A stretch of DNA of 33,563 nucleotides from a virus (IMGVR_UViG_2690316149_000019); one strand, 5' to 3'; positions 5,971 to 25,822 are shown, counted from the stretch's first letter. The notes: generated by a model from the letters alone, not told the origin. Made by a program: numbers and translations.

Positions 5971-6422
5971 TGGCAAAAATTCACGAGGTAAAGCTGCACG
6001 CAAAATATTTCGACCTTGTGCTGGAAGGAAAGAAACGCGCAGAGTTTCGGAAAAATGACCGTAATTATGAGCGCGGGGACACGTTGATTTTGCATGAATG
6101 GGTGCAGGGTGTGTATACGGGGCGAAAGGTTGAAGCCCGGATAACAGATGTTACTGACCTGTCAGACTGGCTGGAAGATTATGTCTTGCTAAGTATTGAG
6201 CTGCTTAATACAGGTGCATATGAGATTGTGAACTGGAAAGAACTTAGTGAGCGTGGTCTGGTATTCAGAATTAATCATGAAATTATGCATCAGCTCGGCC
6301 TTGCTGTTATGTATGAACCAGAGACGGGGATGTCTGGCGGGGCAATGGTTGCCACGGATGGAGCATGGAACTATTCAGATGAACAGATGGAGCGTGCACA
6401 GCAAAACGGGTGGCTTGGATAA
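5970..6422 (+). CDS. Accessory protein with N-terminal ASCH/DUF3850-like (PUA-fold) domain and unknown C-terminal half
   Basis: N-terminus MAKIHEVKLHAKYFDLVLEGKKRAEFRKNDRNYERGDTLILHEW resembles DUF3850/ASCH domains. Start overlaps the A stop (TAATG). Occupies the position where P2 carries orf91/tin/old. Confidence 0.6.
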   Translation: MAKIHEVKLHAKYFDLVLEGKKRAEFRKNDRNYERGDTLILHEWVQGVYTGRKVEARITDVTDLSDWLEDYVLLSIELLNTGAYEIVNWKELSERGLVFRINHEIMHQLGLAVMYEPETGMSGGAMVATDGAWNYSDEQMERAQQNGWLG

Positions 6423-6655
6423 TGCACAGAATGCCAGGCGAGATACCGCACCATAAAACTAAAAATATCAAGCTGATGGCTGTTGTTCACCGTCTACAGC
6501 AGATTATGGTCAACGAAAATCTGACGCCCGATGAGCTGGTCGGGTGTGCCGAAATAGTCCGGGATAATTACAGACGGTTTAACGATATCAGTAGACAGAA
6601 AAGTGAGACATTTCGGCCAGCTAACATGCCAAAACCACCACCACGCAGGCCGTAG
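6422..6655 (+). CDS. Small hypothetical protein
   Basis: 77-aa ORF, start overlapping the upstream stop (TAATG); proline- and basic-rich C-terminus, no recognisable domain. Could be spurious. Confidence 0.35.
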   Translation: MHRMPGEIPHHKTKNIKLMAVVHRLQQIMVNENLTPDELVGCAEIVRDNYRRFNDISRQKSETFRPANMPKPPPRRP

Positions 6656-6888
6656 AGAACCCCGCTATCCATGAAACTTGCTTTCAGGGAGGCGGGTTGA
6701 ATAAAAGTAGCTTTGCCGAAAAGTCTAACTATCTTGGTTTTTGCTGGTCCAAAGTTAATAAACAAACCTGCTTGTATGCAGCGGGTTTCCATATTGCCGT
6801 TTCGTATGCATGCCGCACCGTGCAAAGAGTATGAAAAATGTTATGGAAAAACGGGGATTAGTGTTATATTAATGGCTGAAAAGTGGTC

Positions 6889-6917
6889 TTGACACAGGTT
6901 GTTGTGTGTGGTAAGGC
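6889..6917 (+). promoter_or_regulatory. Candidate sigma70 promoter for the peptidase gene
   Basis: TTGACA at 6889-6894 followed 17 nt later by a weak -10 (TAAGGC); AGGAGG Shine-Dalgarno at 6944-6949 before ATG 6954. Confidence 0.3.
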
Positions 6918-6953
6918 TGTATCCCTTTGGCATTCAAAATGTAGGAGGCAACC

Positions 6954-7430
6954 ATGAGCATCGCAGCTAAAAATCTGCTTAATCGCTATTGGGATCGCCG
7001 ACTACCTGTCGATCCGTTTAAGCTCGCCGCAGCGTGGGGTGCAAGAGTGGAGCCGCTCAGGGAACCAGCGAATGGGTTAAGTGGTTCAGCCGTAATAGAA
7101 AATGGCATACCTTATATTTATTTTAACTCAAATGAACATTACAACCGCCAACGCTTTACTGTAGCGCATGAGCTCGGTCATCATGTTTTAGGGCATACTC
7201 AAGACGGAGAATATCATCGCGATATTGTAGGCAACTACTCAACTGGCATCCGTGATTATCGTGAAATAGAAGCTAACCAGTTTGCTGCAGAGCTATTGAT
7301 GCCGGAAGAGGCCATTCGTCAACTAGTGTCGCGTATAGGCGTTGATAGTACATTACGTTTGGCAAACATATTTAACGTTTCTGAGGCTGCTATGCACTGG
7401 CGTCTTAAAGCGTTGGGTATGGCTTACTAA
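6954..7430 (+). CDS. ImmA/IrrE-family (COG2856-like) zinc metallopeptidase
   Basis: HEXXH motif in FTVAHELGHHVLGH and a downstream glutamate-containing motif (EANQFAAELLMP). 158 aa with a strong AGGAGG ribosome-binding site. Confidence 0.75.
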   Translation: MSIAAKNLLNRYWDRRLPVDPFKLAAAWGARVEPLREPANGLSGSAVIENGIPYIYFNSNEHYNRQRFTVAHELGHHVLGHTQDGEYHRDIVGNYSTGIRDYREIEANQFAAELLMPEEAIRQLVSRIGVDSTLRLANIFNVSEAAMHWRLKALGMAY

Positions 7431-7460
7431 TACCCTCTTTAACTTTTTTCAAACCGGTTT

Positions 7461-7495
7461 AAAATCACCATTATTTTATTAATAATGGTGATTTT
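7461..7495. promoter_or_regulatory. Perfect 15-bp inverted repeat (aaaatcaccattatt / aataatggtgatttt, 5-nt loop) abutting the ATG of the membrane-protein gene
   Basis: Seen in sequence. Preceded by the 10-bp palindrome aaaccggttt (7451-7460) and followed by a T-run; the right arm contains the only Shine-Dalgarno-like element (GGTGA) for ATG 7498. Confidence 0.6.
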
Positions 7496-7497
7496 TT

Positions 7498-8118
7498 ATG
7501 GCAGATATCGACCTCTCTGGCCAATCTCCGGCTCAGTCTTCCCAGCCATCCAAAACTTCAACCTTTCCACATCCACCTAGCGATGCCGATCCAGATATTT
7601 TGTTACGTAGAGAAGTGCATGATGGCATGGAAAGGAGGGGAATGCGCTTAGTTTTGTCAGCCACCGTACTTTTTTTTGCCATAATGTTTTTATGGAAAGG
7701 TCTGTATTTCGCTCTCGAAGTCGGAAATGGTTTGCTTGCGGCTAAAAGTAGTATTGTTTCAGCGTTGGCACAAAATGATGAAAAGGTTGTTTGCGAACCT
7801 AAAACTAAATGTATTGAGCCTAAACAGCAGACAATGAAACCTACAGAAAAAACTCCCGGCATGTCAACAAAGGGTGATAGAGTAATGCCAAACTTATCTA
7901 CAGATTGGCTTTCTGCAAGTTCGCTAATTGCCATAGTCGCTTTCATCCTTGGTGTTGGCTTGACGTTAATCCTTACCCTACTTAAGTCCGCTTTTCATCA
8001 TCCGACTGATAAAAATCTCAATGAGCAAAAAACAACAGATGCGATTGAGTTGGCGACTCCCTTAAGTGAGTTAATCGCGGGTATTATTAATTATCTCAAG
8101 AGCAAATTTTCTAAATAA
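7498..8118 (+). CDS. Membrane protein of unknown function (two predicted transmembrane helices)
   Basis: 206 aa with hydrophobic stretches LVLSATVLFFAIMFLWKGLYFAL and LIAIVAFILGVGLTLILTLL and a Pro/Ser/Thr-rich N-terminus; lower GC than the phage core. Confidence 0.6.
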   Translation: MADIDLSGQSPAQSSQPSKTSTFPHPPSDADPDILLRREVHDGMERRGMRLVLSATVLFFAIMFLWKGLYFALEVGNGLLAAKSSIVSALAQNDEKVVCEPKTKCIEPKQQTMKPTEKTPGMSTKGDRVMPNLSTDWLSASSLIAIVAFILGVGLTLILTLLKSAFHHPTDKNLNEQKTTDAIELATPLSELIAGIINYLKSKFSK

Positions 8119-8327
8119 CGTCCTCTTGGTTATTTTTTAAATCAGCACCATTAGTGCCGGTTTTTTTATGCTGTTTTACTGTAATTTCCCTGTTTTTAAG
8201 CCGTGCATGCAGCAGGTGCATGGTTTTGCATGCGCAGGAAGTGTCCGTTCTGGCCGAGCACCGGCAGAACGGACGCGGATCCAGAACGGTCATGCAACTG
8301 CATTCAAACCACCCCATGAAGCGGGCG

Positions 8328-8346
8328 GGCGAGGCGGGGAAAGCAC
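8328..8346. other. cos: cos site (19-nt cohesive end sequence, P2-type)
   Basis: ggcgaggcggggaaagcac matches the P2 cohesive-end sequence as I recall it. It lies between the accessory locus and Q, where cos sits in P2, and a 10-bp stem-loop (8243-8274) is nearby. Confidence 0.7.
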
Positions 8347-8515
8347 TGCGCGCTGGCGGTGGTGCTGATTTTATTTTTTCAGCGTCTGAGCGCGTCGTGA
8401 TGGCGTTTAGATTGTGCGCCGGGGCGTTGGTGTGTCTGCGGGCTGTTTTGTGCGGTGGTGAGCGTGTGAGGGCGTGATGACGGGGGGTAAAAAAGCCGCC
8501 CGCAGGCGGCGATGT

Positions 8516-9550
8516 TCAGCCGTTGTCAGTGTCCAGTGAGTAGTTTTTAAAGCGGATGACCTCCTGACCGAGCCAGCCGTTTATCTCGCGGATCCTGTCC
8601 TGTAACGGGATAAGCTCATTGCGGACAAAGACCTTTGCCACTTTCTCAATATCACCCAGCGACCCGACGTTCTCCGGCTTGCCGCCCATCAACTGAAAGG
8701 GGATGCGGTGCGCGTCCAGCAGGTCAGCGGCGCTGGCTTTTTTGATATTAAAAAAATCGTCCTTCGTTGCCACTTCACTGAGCGGGATAATTTTAATGCC
8801 GTCGGCTTTCCCCTGCGGGGCATAGAGAAACAGATTTTTAAAGTTGTTGCGGCCTTTCGACTTGACCATGTTTTCGCGAAGCATTTCGATATCGTTGCGA
8901 TCCTGCACGGCATCGGTAACGTACATGATATATCCGGCATGAGCGCCGTTTTCGTAATACTTGCGGCGGAACAGCGTGGCCGACTCATTCAGCCAGGCAG
9001 AATTAAGGGCGCTGAGATATTCCGGCAGGCCGTACAGCTCCTGATTAATATCCGGCTCCAGCAGGTGAAACACGGAGCCGGGTGCGAAGGCTGTCGGCTC
9101 GTTGAAGGACGGCACCCACCAGTAAACATCCTCCTCCACACCTCGGCGGGTATATTTTGCCGGTGAGGTTTCCAGTCTGATGACCTTACCGGTGGTGCTG
9201 TAACGCTTTTCCAGAAACGCATTACCGAACACCAGAAAATCCAGCACAAAGCGGCTGAAATCCTGCTGGGAAAGCCACGGATGCGGGATAAATGTCGAGG
9301 CCAGAATATTACGTTTGACGTAAATCGGTGAGCTGTGATGCACGGCAGCACGCAGGCTTTTTGCCAGACCGGTAAAGCTGATCGGTGGCTCATACCATCT
9401 GCCGTTACTGATGCACTCGACGTAATCCAGAATGTCACGGCGGTCGAGTACCGGCACCGGCTCACCAAAGGTGAATGCTTCCATTTTCGGGGCGCTGGCG
9501 GTCATTGTTTTTGCCGCAGGTTGCGGTGTTTTCCCTTTTTTCTTGCTCAT
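8516..9550 (-). CDS. Q: Portal protein
   Basis: 344-aa ORF matching P2 gpQ in length and position; start overlaps the stop of P. Confidence 0.9.
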   Translation of the reverse strand: MSKKKGKTPQPAAKTMTASAPKMEAFTFGEPVPVLDRRDILDYVECISNGRWYEPPISFTGLAKSLRAAVHHSSPIYVKRNILASTFIPHPWLSQQDFSRFVLDFLVFGNAFLEKRYSTTGKVIRLETSPAKYTRRGVEEDVYWWVPSFNEPTAFAPGSVFHLLEPDINQELYGLPEYLSALNSAWLNESATLFRRKYYENGAHAGYIMYVTDAVQDRNDIEMLRENMVKSKGRNNFKNLFLYAPQGKADGIKIIPLSEVATKDDFFNIKKASAADLLDAHRIPFQLMGGKPENVGSLGDIEKVAKVFVRNELIPLQDRIREINGWLGQEVIRFKNYSLDTDNG

Positions 9551-11322
9551 CAGTAAAACTCCAGAATGGTGGATGTCAGCGGGGTGCTGATACCGGCGGT
9601 GAGTGGCTCATTTAACAGGGCGTGCATGGTCGCCCAGGCGAGGTCGGCGTGGCTGGCTTCCTCGCTGCGGCTGGCCTCATAGGTGGCGCTGCGTCCGCTG
9701 CTGGTCATGGTCTTGCGGATAGCCATAAACGAGCTGGTGATGTCGGTGGCGCTGACGTCATATTCCAGACAGCCACGGCGGATAACGTCTTTTGCCTTGA
9801 GCACCATTGCGGTTTTCATTTCCGGCGTGTAGCGGATGTCGCGCGCGGCGGGATAGAACGAGCGCACGAGCTGGAACACGCCGACACCGAGGCCGGTGGC
9901 ATCAATACCGATGTATTCAACGTTATATTTTTCGGTGAGTTTGCGGATGGATTCCGCCTGAGTGGCAAAGTCCATGCCTTTCCACTGGTGACGCTCAAGT
10001 ATTCTGAATTTGCCACCGGCCACCACCGGCGGTGCCAGCACCACGCATCCGGCGCTGTCGCCACGGTGTGACGGGTCGTAACCAATCCATACCGGGCGGG
10101 AGCCGAACGGATTGGCGGCAAACGGCGCATAGTCTTCCCATTCTTCCAGCGTGTCGACCATGCAGCGTTGCAGCTCCTCGAACGGGAACACCGACGCCTT
10201 GTCGTCAACAAATTCACACATGAACAGGTTTTTAAAATCGTCGGCGCTGTTTTCACGTTTGAGCTGCTCAATGTCGAACAGCGTGCAGCCACCTTTCAGG
10301 GCGTCCTCAATGGTGACAATCTGCCGCCACTGGCCGTCCGCACAGAGAAGCCCACCGGCAAGGGCGTTATGACTGACGTCGATTTCCACGCGTTCGGCGG
10401 CGCTGGCGCGTCCCCGGTTGAACAGTTCACCTGACCAGAACGGGTAGGCGTCGTGCGCCAGCGTGGACGGGGTGGAGAAATAGGTCGAACGCAGGTGACT
10501 CTGTGAGGCCATACCTGATGCCACCTTACGCAGTACCTGAAAATTCGGGATCCAGAAAATCTCGTCGACGTACAGGTCGCCGTTATGGCTCTGTGCGGTG
10601 TTGGAGTTGGTGCCGAGAAAAATTAGTTTTGCGCCGTTATTGCCCAGGACAATCGGGTCACCGGTCAGGTCAACGTCAACCAGACGGGCAAAGGCGATGA
10701 TGTATTCGCGGAACACATACGCCTGCGTTTTACTGGCCGACAGAAAAATCTGGTTATGGCCGGTTTTCAGGGCGCGCAGCAGCGCCTCGCGGGAAAAATA
10801 AAACGTTGCGCCAATCTGGCGGGATTTCAGTATATCGCGGATGCGGTGCTCAAGCCCGGCGCGATACCAGTGCAACTGATAGTCGAAAGACTGCTCAAAG
10901 AAAATCTGCTCCAGCTTTTCGATGGCTTCGTCACTGAAAAAATTCTTTTTCGGTTTGCGACGCCCGCCTTTGTTGCGGTTAGCGACGTTCGGATTAAGGT
11001 CTGCCTCGTTGCCGGTCTGACTGTAGCGGTTGACCCGCGCCAGTCGTTCAATCTGGCGTCCCAGCAGGTCAATTTCCTTGAAGTCACCGCCGGTTTTCTG
11101 CGGTTTGATGATGAGCTGGGTCAGCCGCGCTTCCAGGCTCATTTCGACACGGCTGATGGGGGCAACGCTGTCCCAGCCGTCGCGCTGTTTCCAGCTCTGC
11201 ACCGTCGGGCGTTTCATCTGCAACATGGCGGCAATCTGCGGCACGGAAAACCCCTGCCAGTACAGCAGCGCCGCCTGCCGACGCGGGTCGTGTAAAAGAG
11301 TGGTGTCTGTGGTGATGGTCAT
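9550..11322 (-). CDS. P: Terminase large subunit (ATPase)
   Basis: 590 aa from MTITTDTTLLHDPRRQAALLYWQGF, a P2 gpP-like N-terminus. The longer six-frame ORF (to 11352) is an upstream extension. Confidence 0.9.
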   Translation of the reverse strand: MTITTDTTLLHDPRRQAALLYWQGFSVPQIAAMLQMKRPTVQSWKQRDGWDSVAPISRVEMSLEARLTQLIIKPQKTGGDFKEIDLLGRQIERLARVNRYSQTGNEADLNPNVANRNKGGRRKPKKNFFSDEAIEKLEQIFFEQSFDYQLHWYRAGLEHRIRDILKSRQIGATFYFSREALLRALKTGHNQIFLSASKTQAYVFREYIIAFARLVDVDLTGDPIVLGNNGAKLIFLGTNSNTAQSHNGDLYVDEIFWIPNFQVLRKVASGMASQSHLRSTYFSTPSTLAHDAYPFWSGELFNRGRASAAERVEIDVSHNALAGGLLCADGQWRQIVTIEDALKGGCTLFDIEQLKRENSADDFKNLFMCEFVDDKASVFPFEELQRCMVDTLEEWEDYAPFAANPFGSRPVWIGYDPSHRGDSAGCVVLAPPVVAGGKFRILERHQWKGMDFATQAESIRKLTEKYNVEYIGIDATGLGVGVFQLVRSFYPAARDIRYTPEMKTAMVLKAKDVIRRGCLEYDVSATDITSSFMAIRKTMTSSGRSATYEASRSEEASHADLAWATMHALLNEPLTAGISTPLTSTILEFY

Positions 11323-16805: not shown

Positions 16806-17247
16806 GGCGCTGACTGATGCCGTCACGGTGCTGAAAACTAACCCCGATATGCTGCAGATATTCGTGGATAACGGGAGTATTGCCTCCACGCTGGCGACGT
16901 CGCTGTCGTTCGAAAAGCGTTACACGCTCAATGTGATTGTGACCGACTTTACCGGTGATTTTGACCTGCTCATCGTGCCGGTGCTGGCGTGGCTGCGGGA
17001 AAATCAGCCCGACATCATGACCACCGACGAAGGCCAGAAAAAGGGCTTCACGTTTTATGCAGACATCAACAATGACAGCAGCTTTGATATCAGCATCAGC
17101 CTGATGCTGACCGAGCGCACGCTGGTCAGTGAGGTGGGCGGCGCACTGCATGTGAAGAATATCCCGGAACCTCCGCCGCCGGAGCCGGTCACCCGCCCGA
17201 TGGAGCTGTATATCAATGGCGAACTGGTGAGCAAGTGGGATGAATGA
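16780..17247 (+). CDS. R: Tail completion protein R
   Basis: 155 aa, P2 gpR length and position. Confidence 0.85.
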   Translation: MLKPDSLRRALTDAVTVLKTNPDMLQIFVDNGSIASTLATSLSFEKRYTLNVIVTDFTGDFDLLIVPVLAWLRENQPDIMTTDEGQKKGFTFYADINNDSSFDISISLMLTERTLVSEVGGALHVKNIPEPPPPEPVTRPMELYINGELVSKWDE

Positions 17248-17692
17248 GTTTAAGCGTTTTGAAGACCGGCTGACCGGACTGATTGAGTCGCTGTCACCGT
17301 CAGGGCGTCGGCGACTGAGTGCCGAACTGGCGAAACGTCTGCGGCAGAGTCAGCAGCGTCGGGTGATGGCGCAGAAAGCCCCGGACGGCACACCCTACGC
17401 GCCACGTCAGCAGCAGAGCGTCAGAAAAAAGACCGGTCGTGTTAAGCGAAAAATGTTTGCGAAACTTATCACCAGTCGTTTTTTGCATATCCGCGCCAGC
17501 CCGGAGCAGGCATCAATGGAATTTTACGGCGGGAAGTCGCCGAAAATCGCCAGTGTGCATCAGTTCGGTCTGTCGGAAGAAACCCGGAAAGACGGTAAGA
17601 AAATTGATTATCCGGCGCGTCCTCTGCTCGGCTTTACCGGTGAGGATGTGCAGATGATTGAGGAGATTATCCTGGCTCACCTTGAGCGTTAG
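17240..17692 (+). CDS. S: Tail completion protein S
   Basis: 150 aa, P2 gpS length and position. Confidence 0.85.
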   Translation: MNEFKRFEDRLTGLIESLSPSGRRRLSAELAKRLRQSQQRRVMAQKAPDGTPYAPRQQQSVRKKTGRVKRKMFAKLITSRFLHIRASPEQASMEFYGGKSPKIASVHQFGLSEETRKDGKKIDYPARPLLGFTGEDVQMIEEIILAHLER

Positions 17693-17722
17693 TTTTATCC
17701 AGGCAGAGGCTGATGCGCAATT

Positions 17723-17757
17723 AAACATTGAGCGGCCATGCTGGTCGCTCAATGTTT
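17723..17757. terminator. Bidirectional stem-loop between convergent S and the moron gene
   Basis: aaacattgagcg (loop gccatgctggt) cgctcaatgttt: a 12-bp perfect stem. Confidence 0.55.
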
Positions 17758-17763
17758 AGAGGT

Positions 17764-18549
17764 TTATGAGTGATTTTTATTTGATGCTTTGTATTCTAAA
17801 ACCTTCTTATTGGCGTAAAAGAATTTTGTATATGACAGGAATATAACCAGACCTGAAGTGAAATAGACGAGGGATAGTATTAATAATGCTTTTTTGTGAC
17901 TGTTATTATCTTTAATCTCCTGGCTTAACCATTCGGAGTCCTCCTCGTTTAGCTGTAAGAGCTTATTGCAGGCGATTTCAGGAAGTGTGTCTTTTATAAA
18001 TACGTTTTGCAGTCTCTTGCAATCGGCAAGGCTATAAGTTTTATTAAATTCAACTGCTTTATTTTTGAAGGATAAAAGAACTTTGTCACTATAAACATAG
18101 TACATCATATTTTTATATGGTATGCCTATGGCATCTCTTACTATAGCGGATTGTTTGTTGTGTATATAACATGCGAAGAGAATATAAATAATACTGGCCA
18201 GAATTACAATTATTGTTTTAATTATGTGTGGTGGTTTTGTTATGTCACCCCAGATGCGAGTAAGGAAAAAATACGATGTTTTTAGTTTTCCATCAATCAG
18301 TCCCTGCTGTATCATTCTCACATTTTCAATGCCTGATACATTGATTCCGTTAATTATTTTAAATAGTTGAATGTCGCGCCACTCGCGGTCAAGTCTTTTT
18401 AATTTTTTGTCTGAATATCCAAAATTGAAATAATGTGCAATAAGCCTCATAAGGTTACTTTTACCAAAGCTAAAAAATGCTAATACTGCAAAGCTACAAA
18501 GGAAAAAAACGATTAGCCCCCACACATTAGTCACATTATAGCTGACCAT
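17764..18549 (-). CDS. AT-rich moron: membrane protein of unknown function (P2 orf30 position)
   Basis: 261 aa with three hydrophobic helices (N-terminal, central, C-terminal), Lys/Asn/Ile/Tyr-rich. Much lower GC than the flanking tail genes and transcribed against the late operon. Confidence 0.7.
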   Translation of the reverse strand: MVSYNVTNVWGLIVFFLCSFAVLAFFSFGKSNLMRLIAHYFNFGYSDKKLKRLDREWRDIQLFKIINGINVSGIENVRMIQQGLIDGKLKTSYFFLTRIWGDITKPPHIIKTIIVILASIIYILFACYIHNKQSAIVRDAIGIPYKNMMYYVYSDKVLLSFKNKAVEFNKTYSLADCKRLQNVFIKDTLPEIACNKLLQLNEEDSEWLSQEIKDNNSHKKALLILSLVYFTSGLVIFLSYTKFFYANKKVLEYKASNKNHS

Positions 18550-18632
18550 TACGCTCTCCTTGAATGTTGTCTGGTAGTTCTACAAATGAATCCAGATAGC
18601 ATAACTTTTATATATTGTGCAATCTCACATGC

Positions 18633-19268
18633 ATGAACACTCTCGCAAATATTCAGGAACTCGCGCGCGCACTGCGCAACATGATTCGCACCGGCATTAT
18701 CGTCGAAACCGACCTTAACGCCGGTCGCTGCCGCGTGCAGACCGGCGGCATGTGCACCGACTGGCTTCAGTGGCTGACCCATCGTGCCGGGCGTTCGCGC
18801 ACATGGTGGGCACCTTCCGTGGGGGAACAGGTGCTGATTCTGGCCGTGGGCGGTGAACTCGACACGGCGTTCGTTCTGCCGGGGATTTATTCCGGCGATA
18901 ACCCTGCGCCGTCTGCGTCGGCTGATGCCCTGCATATCCGTTTCCCTGACGGGGCGGTGATTGAGTATGAACCCGAAACCAGTGCACTCACGGTAAGCGG
19001 AATTAAAACGGCCAGCGTGACGGCTTCTGATTCTGTTACTGCCACGGTACCGGTGGTCACGGTGAAAGCGTCAACCCGTGTCACCCTGGACACACCAGAA
19101 GTGGTCTGCACTAACAAACTGACTACCGGCACGCTGGAAGTGCAGAAGGGCGGGACGATGCGCGGCAACATTGAACACACCGGCGGTGAACTCTCATCAA
19201 ACGGTAAGGTACTGCATACCCATAAACACCCCGGCGACAGCGGCGGCACAACCGGGAGTCCTTTATGA
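18633..19268 (+). CDS. V: Baseplate spike protein
   Basis: 211 aa from MNTLANIQELARALRNMIRTG, matching P2 gpV. Confidence 0.88.
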   Translation: MNTLANIQELARALRNMIRTGIIVETDLNAGRCRVQTGGMCTDWLQWLTHRAGRSRTWWAPSVGEQVLILAVGGELDTAFVLPGIYSGDNPAPSASADALHIRFPDGAVIEYEPETSALTVSGIKTASVTASDSVTATVPVVTVKASTRVTLDTPEVVCTNKLTTGTLEVQKGGTMRGNIEHTGGELSSNGKVLHTHKHPGDSGGTTGSPL

Positions 19269-23839: not shown

Positions 23840-24178
23840 GTTGTATGAACTCTTGTGTGAGCTTACATACCTATAGAACAGAGTAAAGCCTAATCTGACA
23901 GTCCGCTCTGTGCCAGGAGCGGACATAACGACACGTTAGTTAGAAATCTCAAGACCAATTAGGTTGGATACTTACATGTATACTATTGCCTAACGATACT
24001 ACCCTATCAACCTCATGGTTTATAGGCGGGGGTGAGAGCCAATCGAACGCTATCGTACGTTTTTATGCTGTCTACCCTAGACCCCAAGTAGACATGAATC
24101 TTACCTGATTTCCATACGAGGGCGACGTTGATCATCCAGCTTTAGTGCGAGCACTGAACTTAACATTTACCAGCAATA

Positions 24179-25225
24179 GTGATATTTTCTACAAAGAAAA
24201 ATATATGGAATAACGTCATCGCGGGTACAAAAATGACTATAAAAAAAACATATGTAACACCAACAGAAATAGTGAAATATTTTTATGACAAACCGGAAAA
24301 CGATAACGTAAAAGAGAGAAAAACAATTGAGAGCCTGACCCGTCTCAAACCTGAGTGGGAAAATACTCTCGATATGATGAAGTTAATACGCAATTGTGAA
24401 AAGCTAGCAACTGAAGGTATTTTAATGGAATTATCTTCAGGACATACTCTTTTGGACCGTTGCTATTTCGCACCGAATTTCAATGAATCAGATGCGAAAT
24501 ATGGAAAGTATGATTTTATAGCTGATGGATTTGAGTCAATCATAGACCGCCTTAGTCCTTCCGTTTTACCTGTTGTTGTTGAAAAAAGTGATGGTTCACA
24601 TGATCTTGGTACTAGTTTTATTGTTGGGAATAACCACACGATATTTACAGCCAGACATGTTATTGAAGACATGAAGAGTATCAGGATACTTAGAGCTGGT
24701 GGTGAGGCTTTACCAATACATAAAATCTTTGTATCTAACGATGAACGTATTGATATCGCTTTAGTTTTCACAACCATTCCGAATGAAGATAATATTCAAC
24801 CACTTAAGGTCTCAACCAAAGCCTCGGTACTGGATGAAATTTTATCAATAGGATTTCCACCCATTCCAGGATTTGATGCATTAAAGTTATATGACGTTTC
24901 GCATATAAATTCGTTTGTCCGACTGTCAAAGGGGCGAATTGTTGGTTCTGGTCACTCTTACTTAGATTCACAAGACTTTTTATTATTCAATGCTAGGGTT
25001 AAGGGGGGGAATAGCGGTGGCCCTATAATTAACAAATACGGCTTTGTTGTTGGTATGCTTGTACAAATACCAATATCATCTGAGGACAGTTCAAAGATTG
25101 ATAACCTTGGATATGGTATAGCTGTAACAGGAAAAAGCCTGCTGGATGCCATTACATTTACAGAAAATGGCCGCGAATTAACACTCACCGACCGAGGAAA
25201 TGGAGAATATTCAACTCTAGCATAA
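24179..25225 (+). CDS. AT-rich moron: trypsin-like (S1/chymotrypsin-fold) serine protease with an unknown N-terminal domain of about 140 aa
   Basis: Catalytic triad context in order: TARHVIED (His), ERIDIALVF (Asp), GGNSGGPII (GxSGG Ser). The annotated start is a GTG; an in-frame ATG at 24233 is an alternative. Occupies the P2 Z/fun position between G and FI. Confidence 0.75.
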   Translation: MIFSTKKNIWNNVIAGTKMTIKKTYVTPTEIVKYFYDKPENDNVKERKTIESLTRLKPEWENTLDMMKLIRNCEKLATEGILMELSSGHTLLDRCYFAPNFNESDAKYGKYDFIADGFESIIDRLSPSVLPVVVEKSDGSHDLGTSFIVGNNHTIFTARHVIEDMKSIRILRAGGEALPIHKIFVSNDERIDIALVFTTIPNEDNIQPLKVSTKASVLDEILSIGFPPIPGFDALKLYDVSHINSFVRLSKGRIVGSGHSYLDSQDFLLFNARVKGGNSGGPIINKYGFVVGMLVQIPISSEDSSKIDNLGYGIAVTGKSLLDAITFTENGRELTLTDRGNGEYSTLA

Positions 25226-25700
25226 ATGATATTATTAATTAAGTTGTACTAACTCAGTTTAAATGAATCAAGCATCCCCGTAACTTTGCCTGAAAAGGCT
25301 CATCGAGGGATGCACATTGTACGGATGTGTGAAAACTAAATCGGCTTTGTCACTTGGATTCGAGGGGAAAACTGAACTGAAAGCGATAAAAACGTCTAAA
25401 AAATCGTTTCGCAGACAGATGCACCCGATTCAAGCCATTTTGAGGAAGGCTTTCTGCCTTTTATATTTATATTAATCATAAGCTTATTCCATTGGTGTAC
25501 GATATCGTGCTTTGCCCCTCATCTCCCAGATAACTAATTAGCCTTAAAATTACTCATGTGTTTCTGCCGGTTAAAATTATATGGTTTTCATTTACAATAG
25601 TCTCAAGTCCGCTCTTCGCTCAAAGCAGACTGTCAGATTTGATAGCATTTGGGCTATGTAAATTGTCAGGCGGAAAATGAGTGAGTACAAATCAGGACAG

Positions 25701-25725
25701 GCGGGCGAATTGCCCGCATTTTCTT
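25701..25725 (+). terminator. Rho-independent terminator upstream of the FI late promoter
   Basis: gcgggcgaattgcccgc palindromic hairpin followed by a T-rich run (attttcttt). Confidence 0.55.
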
Positions 25726-25822
25726 TATCTGTTGTTTCATCCCCTGACCAGCCAGGTCAAATAGCGTCTCATGCTCTGCACAACAGAAAATAGTTGCACC
25801 CATTAACCACGGAGTTAAACGG

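Follow-up and report, generated by a model that had tools for sequence, protein, structure and literature searches.

It has long been known that the exclusion phenotypes of P2 lysogens map to old, tin, and fun. Another accessory gene of the same phage, orf30, lies between the tail genes S and V, and carries the label "nonessential" in the P2 record AF063097. The function of its product is given as "unknown" in PMC3091744, where the foreign genes of P2-like phages are placed at three loci, namely the orf30 locus, the TO region, and the Z region. The TO and Z loci are described as highly swappable defence hotspots (PMC9122126; bioRxiv 10.1101/2024.10.15.618418; PMC13586616), in papers that name neither orf30 nor the S/V slot, and phage R18C has another open reading frame at the orf30 position (PMC6823313). 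The literature that we searched assigns a function neither to orf30 nor to DUF6216, the Pfam family to which we connect it below. The present analysis re-identifies a gene already known from P2. What it adds is a definition of the family, a predicted topology, the DUF6216 link, a deep synteny with sustained AT-richness, a domestication pattern, and the exact boundaries of the cassette.

The window (the whole stretch of DNA that was analysed, 33,563 nucleotides from the virus IMGVR_UViG_2690316149_000019) can be read, on its composition profile and gene order, as a P2-type prophage in prophage gene order. The first-pass annotation, made from the sequence alone, had assigned a reverse-oriented gene of the window to the orf30 slot of P2, on the strand opposite to the late operon, with GC content far below that of its neighbours and a function not established, and on each of these points it was right. 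The DNA of the orf30 region is 98.7% identical to positions 9275-10375 of AF063097, and the protein aligns over its full length with P2 Orf30 (AAD03281.1) at 256 of 261 identical residues (98%), the five substitutions being at residues 121, 125, 132, 135, and 141, in or just after the second hydrophobic segment. The two have the same length, S/V position, orientation, hairpin, and PV elements, and the P2 annotation was transferred at an offset of +8325 for the O-operon terminator, orf30, the Ogr site, and the start of V (Table 1). The profile phrog_2407 is matched over residues 1-261 of 261 with E = 1.1e-148, and its annotated function is likewise "unknown". An identical allele is present in E. 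coli chromosomes, for example at 100% in APEC O2-211. As for composition, orf30 has a GC content of 0.33 and a GC3 of 0.34, compared with 0.52 for the whole window, 0.55-0.63 for the adjacent 300-bp flanks, and GC3 values of 0.59-0.74 for the neighbouring genes R, S, V, W, and J.

Table 1. Features of the S/V junction of the window (positions counted from its first nucleotide)
Feature	Position	Strand	Description
Gene S	17240..17692	+	Tail completion; last gene of the O operon; left flank, convergent with orf30
Whole orf30 cassette	17695..18632		938 bp; hairpin, orf30, and V-proximal intergenic region with PV
Hairpin	17722..17758		Inverted repeat and fold; in P2 (9397-9433) "putative rho-independent terminator for O operon"
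orf30 CDS	17764..18549	-	786 nt; 261 aa and TAA stop; ATG start
TM3, residues 221-239	17833..17889	-	Predicted; Kyte-Doolittle 19-residue peak 2.25; followed by basic tail
Loop 2, residues 128-220	17890..18168	-	Four beta strands and helices; predicted periplasmic
TM2, residues 109-127	18169..18225	-	Predicted; Kyte-Doolittle 19-residue peak 2.63; modelled helix 109-134
Loop 1, residues 28-108	18226..18468	-	Basic, helical; predicted cytoplasmic
TM1, residues 9-27	18469..18525	-	Predicted; Kyte-Doolittle 19-residue peak 2.41; segment varying most among alleles
Shine-Dalgarno AAGGAG	18556..18561	-	6 nt before the orf30 start codon, as read in the sequence
Ogr activator site of late promoter PV	18564..18591	+	Transferred from P2 10239-10266
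Gene V	18633..19268	+	Baseplate spike; first gene of the V operon; right flank, divergent from orf30

This is a real protein-coding gene under purifying selection and not a chance open reading frame. By our own arithmetic, about 7.5% of random codons would be stops at 33% GC, and 261 open codons would arise with p of about 1e-9. Ten alleles from phages and E. coli were compared, and 10/10 keep an intact frame of 261 codons free of indels, at pairwise dN/dS of 0.31-0.61. The constraint is unevenly distributed. Pooled over the ten alleles, pN/pS is 0.35 in loop 1 and 0.30 in loop 2, compared with 1.13 in residues 1-28 (the N-terminus and TM1), 0.72 in TM2, and 0.71 in TM3 with the tail. The pattern indicates that function is carried by the two predicted soluble domains, while the TM segments behave like replaceable anchors. 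Between lineages the nucleotide divergence of orf30 is 7-11% and that of the flanks is 1-5%. These measurements bear on the idea that orf30 has no current function, being a tolerated remnant or selfish passenger kept since its cassette supplies the O-operon terminator and PV. The cassette does hold regulatory elements that the phage needs, and no phenotype is known. Against this stand the intact alleles and a dN/dS below 1 that is lowest in the soluble domains, the quick build-up of stops to be expected in an AT-rich frame, the retention of architecture, motifs, and Cys pair down to about 16% identity, and the phages with an empty slot, which get by with a 64-bp spacer. We consider the idea highly improbable.

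The protein had been described as having three hydrophobic helices, and the Kyte-Doolittle peaks of the minus-strand frame (Table 1) bear this out. The prediction is that it spans the inner membrane with three TM helices. Loop 1 contains 14 K/R versus 7 D/E and bears the family motif D-x-Q-L-F-[RK]-x-x-N-G-[IV]-N-V...D...G, and the C-terminal tail, residues 242-261, which has 5 K/R versus 1 D/E, is likewise predicted to be cytoplasmic. By the positive-inside rule, we infer a topology in which the N-terminus and loop 2 would be periplasmic and loop 1 and the C-terminal tail cytoplasmic. The conserved Cys pair, C177 and C194, is confined to loop 2 and probably forms a disulfide, which fits placement of that loop in an oxidising compartment. 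An AlphaFold model built with a 36-sequence alignment has a pLDDT of 84 and a pTM of 0.71. Loop 1 is modelled as a small helical domain, with helices at 30-40, 48-67, 74-86, and 91-94, and has pLDDT 80-94 from residue 41 on; residues 21-40 have pLDDT 63-69. Loop 2 is modelled as a four-stranded sheet, with strands at 141-145, 148-152, 156-161, and 170-173, and helices at 174-179 and 189-198, and TM3 extends into a long helix.

Among solved and predicted viral structures nothing is informatively similar to the model. Foldseek against BFVD gives no match at E<=1e-3, and the family profile against PDB sequences retrieves nothing credible, the top score of E = 0.039 being to a TM stretch of an NDH subunit. 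Several kinds of envelope protein were considered and set aside. A lipoprotein of the Cor/Llp type would need a lipobox, which is missing, and the N-terminal Cys is not conserved; an envelope-modifying enzyme of the Gtr/Oac type would have more TM helices than are found here, and there are no conserved catalytic-type residues; and for a colicin-immunity-like protein there is one noise match, at E = 0.11.

The family to which the protein belongs is small. A word-indexed search of 5.8 billion proteins finds five clusters only, at 98-39% identity, and a profile run against 1.84 billion cluster representatives finds 44 clusters at the 50% identity level; about 23 of these are full length, with 250-271 aa and 16-31% identity. 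Hydrophobic regions recur in the family at about 10-35, 110-133, and 214-240, and loop 1 is net-positive wherever a simple hydropathy script resolved exactly three segments. The script could parse 34 rows, of which 30 have the loop 2 Cys pair, spaced by 14-19 residues. In the 36-sequence alignment, C194, G68, G87, and I212 are invariant, and G29, Q61, D76, C177, and L208 are conserved in >=90% of the sequences. The invariant positions are mainly Gly, Cys, and hydrophobic, with nothing enzyme-like about them.

The window protein itself matches phrog_2407 and nothing else in Pfam, PADLOC, and PHROGs; PADLOC-DB 2.0 returns 0 families, and in Pfam there is no DUF6216 match at E<=1, so that it is below the 27.3-bit gathering cut-off. 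The connection to DUF6216 (PF19723) is made through its relatives. P0030, a protein from the S/V slot of a P2-like prophage of Sodalis, passes the DUF6216 cut-off with 28.9 versus 27.3 bits and is retrieved by the Orf30-family profile at E = 8.3e-14. Weak sub-threshold DUF6216 matches, collinear over the whole length, are found for 10 of 28 family members, among which DUF6216 is the sole credible Pfam family and PADLOC gives three single weak unrelated matches (E 0.007-0.02). Because P0030 is above the cut-off and the ten weak matches are collinear, Orf30 is best seen as a divergent DUF6216 branch, and the data are consistent with Orf30 being a divergent relative of that family by a link that is transitive via the profile search. 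The two are alike in size, the DUF6216 profile having about 270 positions, and their matches run collinear over the full length. DUF6216 has no known function, and in the literature searched one paper, on an unrelated subject, mentions the family.

The S/V junction is often found without orf30. In phage Wphi, 66 bp separate S from V, and the local alignment of Wphi with the window stops 2 nt beyond the stop codon of S, at 17694, and restarts at 18633, the ATG of V. The exchanged unit, which takes in the hairpin and PV, is hence the entire 938-bp intergenic cassette, versus an unrelated 64-bp spacer. Among 5426 complete E. coli genomes, 1583 carry a P2-like S/V, and orf30 is present in about 460 of the 1583; counted by the gene alone there are 464 genomes (8.6% of complete E. 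coli), all with chromosomal copies. Some 70% of the P2-like prophages of E. coli lack it, and in the rows sampled most E. coli S/V junctions without orf30 show an empty form of 1155 bp versus 2029 bp for the filled one.

Rarely, the slot has other cargo, including other single AT-rich genes. We find a 359-aa RelA/SpoT-type protein (Pfam E = 1.8e-21) that matches the PADLOC candidate PDC-S33 at E = 1e-16 and whose closest solved structures are those of small alarmone synthetases. The others are a 347-aa protein whose C-terminal hydrophobic stretches resemble TM helices, a 247-aa soluble protein, and, encoded on the plus strand, a 246-aa protein that weakly matches HNH. A two-gene system was considered for orf30 and rejected, since the spacers on its two sides, of 71 and 83 bp, leave no space for a second gene, and partner genes are only sporadic (L101, L115).

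Where orf30 or a homolog is present, its position hardly varies. All homologs with readable context belong to P2 or P4 elements. Comparison with P2 orf30 and other P2-like prophages, which the first-pass annotation had suggested, finds the same gene in the same V/S slot. Ninety loci were fetched from IMG/VR, six of which are cut by a contig end and were left out of the count; in 84/84 of the uncut loci V is upstream and divergent and S is downstream and convergent. Homologs in Serratia nevei, S. ureilytica, and a Logan contig, at 21-25% identity, are on the opposite strand between V and S in prophages that are otherwise complete, and the same placement is found in Sodalis, Yersinia frederiksenii, and strain LSJC7. 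In all, homologs down to about 16-25% identity, from Serratia, Yersinia, Sodalis, and Enterobacter, keep both the slot and the orientation. The identity of a homolog to P2 Orf30 tracks the identities of V, S, J, and W, with Spearman coefficients of 0.51-0.65 (n=72, p <= 6e-6), at a much faster rate of change, Orf30 being at 10-30% identity where V is at 66-86%. The orf30 family has long resided at the S/V junction, in P2-like phages from several genera of enterobacteria.

The low GC content is equally tenacious. In each of the 19 homolog loci that were measured, GC is 0.30-0.38 and GC3 0.25-0.41 for the gene itself, and the V-side and S-side flanks have GC 0.50-0.62 in all but three cases, which are in a satellite remnant or beside further AT-rich cargo. 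Since the same slot and the same AT-richness are maintained across deep divergence, low GC is not evidence of recent import here; it is a persistent property of the family, for which one reading would be selection for silencing. That it should persist over such divergence was unexpected.

The expression signals are packed tightly around the gene. Past its stop is the element that the first-pass annotation called a bidirectional terminator with a 12-bp stem. A strong hairpin is indeed there, and its stem is longer, with arms of 17 nt each (17722-17738 and 17742-17758) that are 94% complementary around a 3-nt loop; it begins 30 nt past the S stop and 5 nt past that of orf30. The RNA folds at -32.5 kcal/mol on the plus strand (z -4.65) and at -22.7 kcal/mol on the minus strand (z -3.58), with 0 of 200 shuffles as good in either case. 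A proper T-run does not follow the stem on either strand, and a consensus terminator scan makes no call; bidirectional termination is plausible, and terminator activity in either direction putative. An Rfam scan of 17400-18900 reports the hairpin alone, as a miRNA precursor far under threshold.

At the other end, the Shine-Dalgarno sequence is strong and conserved, as the homologs of Serratia, Yersinia, Enterobacter, and Leclercia also have AAGGAG, or AAGGA, upstream. The Ogr site is within the 83-bp region between orf30 and V, 14 nt from the orf30 ATG, which leaves no room for a promoter of orf30 except in overlap with PV or with the 5' end of V. A sigma-70 scan of the minus strand over 18550-19000 finds no promoter-like site for orf30. 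The Serratia homologs have a longer spacer upstream than P2 has. In three of the four Serratia upstream regions shown, those of both decayed elements described below included, TGCTACAAT occurs about 25 nt upstream of the Shine-Dalgarno sequence; the corresponding sequence is TGCTAATAT in the fourth and only TGCTATCTG in P2. We read TGCTACAAT as resembling an extended -10 element, which would permit Ogr-independent transcription, and which the sigma-70 scan missed because of its poor -35 region. In Serratia, moreover, the late-operon terminator falls within the coding region of the homolog, so that the homolog and the late operon are tightly interwoven.

The first-pass annotation had classed the gene as a moron, and the class can now be divided into what stands and what does not. 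The flanking genes are adjacent in relatives (in Wphi and in most P2-like prophages of E. coli) and the base composition is unusual (0.33 versus 0.55-0.63), as would be said of a moron. As to a promoter and terminator of its own, there is the hairpin past the stop, which has no T-run, and upstream in P2 there is no sigma-70 match. A recent horizontal acquisition is the part that does not stand, given homologs at 16-40% identity that are in the same slot and equally AT-rich.

So close an association with the late genes raises the possibility of a late lytic accessory, expressed perhaps via the shared Ogr site, which would bar further injection, spare progeny from debris, or tune lysis. The gene is locked to the S/V junction beside the Ogr-dependent PV at every uncut locus, PV itself is within the cassette, the divergence follows that of V, S, J, and W, and the Serratia terminator is inside the homolog. 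These points are opposed by the nonessential status of orf30 in P2, by its absence from most E. coli P2-like prophages, by intact copies where the lytic genes have decayed, one of them in a satellite remnant, and by the geometry of the junction, where the P2 Ogr site is downstream of any possible orf30 start site, which makes interference likelier than activation. We judge a lytic accessory to be distinctly unlikely.

Some prophages with decayed structural genes still have the gene intact. In the prophage of E. coli B, the head and lysis genes are lost and a truncated portal is fused beside a truncated S, and orf30 is intact. Serratia rubidaea and S. odorifera have decayed P2-like elements between identical chromosomal neighbours. 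Only fragments of S are left in either; S. odorifera has R and V as fragments too, and the V of the S. rubidaea element is near full length. The homolog is full length in each, at 253 aa in S. rubidaea and 250 aa in S. odorifera. Enterobacter L014 has a pattern similar to that of the decayed Serratia elements. In Leclercia adecarboxylata, the homolog is part of a degraded P4-like satellite, along with Psu, an HNH gene, crr, and the alpha primase 3' end. The primase 3' end and crr are at 75.6% identity to P4, and the homolog is between crr and the chromosome. In P4, the position from primase to att is a minor defence hotspot (PMC13586616). In these sequences orf30 outlives its carrier phages, a sign that hosts keep the gene, and we infer that it would act for the lysogen and not for virion production.

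What such a gene might do for a lysogen can be read in more than one way. It could be a lysogenic-conversion factor without any role toward phages, one that alters the host envelope in a manner affecting stress tolerance, permeability, colonisation, or serum resistance. Retention in decayed prophages is what would be expected of such a factor, as is the predicted inner-membrane location with a periplasmic domain; the protein matches no defence model, and its gene is AT-rich in the way of many H-NS-controlled fitness genes. Working against it, there is no similarity to known envelope or virulence factors, the family is almost wholly confined to P2-like phages and one P4-like satellite, the slot-mates and the satellite position are linked to defence, and orf30 is carried by so small a share of complete E. 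coli genomes. We regard this as unlikely, if a little less so than the lytic role.

The reading to which we lean, tentatively and with less than even confidence, is that Orf30 is an envelope-level phage-exclusion protein that benefits the lysogen. We arrive at it because of the retention in dead prophages, the satellite hotspot, the company kept in the slot, the fast evolution, and the lack of enzyme-like features. The proposed mechanism is that the periplasmic domain would meet a tail-tip or ejection protein, or else an inner-membrane entry factor, and that this contact would halt genome delivery by the incoming phage, which is superinfection exclusion. The conserved cytoplasmic domain would anchor or regulate exclusion, and the persistent low GC would serve expression control, for example H-NS silencing. 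The first-pass suggestion of a lysogenic-conversion or exclusion candidate, put forward as a hypothesis, gains circumstantial support from the copies in decayed prophages and a satellite and from the defence-candidate cargo of the slot.

Some observations are to be counted against exclusion. There is no homology to known exclusion or defence proteins. The slot fidelity is striking, and it would fit a role in the phage cycle too. We know of no orf30 phenotype reported for P2.

A different form of protection would be abortive infection, with Orf30 as an effector that is inert until its cytoplasmic domain senses infection, whereupon it would oligomerise, depolarise or permeabilise the inner membrane, and kill the cell. 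A single-gene, TM-rich protein is suited to this, the hotspot also holds a toxSAS-like gene, the conserved cytoplasmic domain is a possible sensor, and the lasting AT-richness could reflect a selected tight silencing of a toxic product. On the other hand, a pore-forming effector needs neither three TM helices nor a disulfide-braced periplasmic domain, no sensor domain is recognisable, there is no match to the Abi/TM effectors of PADLOC, and toxicity of orf30 has never been reported. We find an abortive-infection effector improbable, to about the same degree as the lytic accessory.

The exclusion reading can be extended from P2 to the family. In the broader form, the Orf30/DUF6216-like proteins would be an unrecognised single-protein inner-membrane anti-phage system, vertically inherited at S/V across Enterobacterales, kept by hosts after prophage decay, and with a low GC that is itself selected. 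This we offer more doubtfully than the exclusion role of Orf30, as a speculation that is somewhat unlikely as it stands. P2 is among the best-studied temperate phages, and orf30 is one of its last genes to which no function is assigned; an exclusion role, if true, would also give DUF6216 a function. The sustained AT-richness makes the family a clean test case of whether low GC in phage cargo is a selected regulatory property versus a mark of recent import.

The inner-membrane superinfection-exclusion proteins with which a comparison suggests itself are HK97 gp15, T4 Imm, and P22 SieA. The likeness, which we draw from general knowledge and not from a direct comparison, is that of a small dispensable accessory gene with a predicted inner-membrane product that has a periplasmic part. 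No sequence or fold relationship of Orf30 to a characterised exclusion protein is found by PADLOC, by the profile against PDB sequences, or by Foldseek against BFVD. In silico, Orf30 has the inner-membrane and periplasmic location of that class, as judged by its three TMs, its positive-inside charges, and the Cys pair of loop 2. It differs in being larger than such proteins and in having two conserved soluble domains predicted to be on opposite sides of the membrane. Within P2, the likeness is to old, tin, and fun(Z), which like orf30 are AT-rich, are nonessential, and are carried as cargo at variable sites whose place in the genome is fixed. Unlike TO and Z, the S/V slot is mostly empty or occupied by one old, vertically co-diverging family, and if that family does encode an exclusion or defence protein, the slot would be a third kind of P2 immunity locus, one at which a single old family is either present or absent.

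Low GC content characterizes the whole Orf30 family, the predicted inner-membrane proteins related to P2 Orf30. Every Orf30-family gene, in loci among L004-L007, L012, L014-L018 and the IMG/VR viral contigs L101-L117, has a GC content of 0.30-0.38 and a GC3 of 0.25-0.41, and the flanks on the V and S sides are at 0.50-0.62 GC in 16 of the 19 loci with such genes. The low GC is also found in clades that are just 16-25% identical to P2 Orf30 and co-diverge with the tail genes, and over the 19 loci the Orf30-family genes exhibit no shift toward the base composition of the phage. The window itself has 2 other stretches of low GC, one of 0.42-0.47 at 6000-8400, the position expected for the P2 old/tin variable region, and one of 0.38-0.40 at 24000-25800, where the P2 Z/fun variable region is expected. 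In some viral contigs, further AT-rich genes adjoin the Orf30 homolog inside the S/V slot, as listed in the table; the second protein of the L115 pair is DUF7480.

At the S/V junction, the S-V spacer in its filled form has no detectable similarity to its empty form (window 18564-18633 compared with L002 1594-1660), and V directly follows the spacer in both forms alike. In the P2 record, the annotated transcription start of the V operon coincides in position with the V start codon (window 18564-18633); the V mRNA would then be leaderless or nearly so. In the Serratia phages, a good terminator-like hairpin for the late (S) operon, with a T-run, falls within the coding region of the Orf30 homolog, toward its 3' end. 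In L004, S and the Orf30 homolog overlap at their 3' ends by about 23 nt (8779-8801).

Serratia rubidaea (L006) and S. odorifera (L018/L019) have decayed P2-like elements at a chromosomal site common to both, with an Asp-Al_Ex transporter gene on one side and ecotin on the other. Both elements keep ogr, and the Orf30 homolog is intact in each. In S. odorifera, S, R and V are all fragmentary; in S. rubidaea, S is likewise fragmentary and V is nearly full length. E. coli B has a defective P2-like prophage in which a truncated portal gene adjoins a truncated S, and the old/tin position is occupied by genes with annotations as an ABC-three-component system and an AAA ATPase (L020 1010-4699). In an Enterobacter MAG contig, fragments that match the N-terminal part of V flank an Orf30 homolog on both sides (L013 1975-3276); either a rearrangement or an artefact of assembly could be the reason.

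Leclercia adecarboxylata has a degraded P4-like satellite with an Orf30-family gene (L015 4385-7750). Among the contexts found here, it is the only one for an Orf30-family gene outside the P2-like S/V slot.

Features of the S/V slot and of the Leclercia satellite, by locus
Feature	Locus	Position	Strand	Remarks
273-aa protein	L101	3416-4237	-	no family match; AT-rich, next to Orf30 homolog
Gene pair, 180 aa and 133 aa	L115	1465-2007 and 1998-2399	+	on strand of homolog, upstream of it
Terminator-like hairpin	L007	8455-8481	-	within Orf30-homolog coding region
Terminator-like hairpin	L006	8612-8636	-	within Orf30-homolog coding region
RelA/SpoT-type protein, 359 aa	L008	1034-2113	-	PADLOC candidate PDC-S33; E. 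coli chromosome
347-aa protein	L009	1056-2099	-	TM-helix-like hydrophobic stretches in C-terminal part; E. coli chromosome
Soluble protein, 247 aa	L010	1167-1910	-	E. coli chromosome
246-aa protein	L011	971-1711	+	weak HNH match; E. coli chromosome
HNH gene	L015	3286-3978		with degraded P4-like satellite
psu	L015	4385-4951		in degraded P4-like satellite
alpha-primase 3' end and crr	L015	5512-6306		in degraded P4-like satellite
Orf30-family gene	L015	6989-7750		between crr and chromosomal xdh genes

Now and then, in E. coli P2-like prophages, the S/V slot has a single gene other than orf30 in it, as in L008-L011 of the table. The slot is not named in the hotspot papers PMC9122126, bioRxiv 10.1101/2024.10.15.618418 and PMC13586616; in the P2-like prophages of E. 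coli, it is a cargo site used at low frequency.
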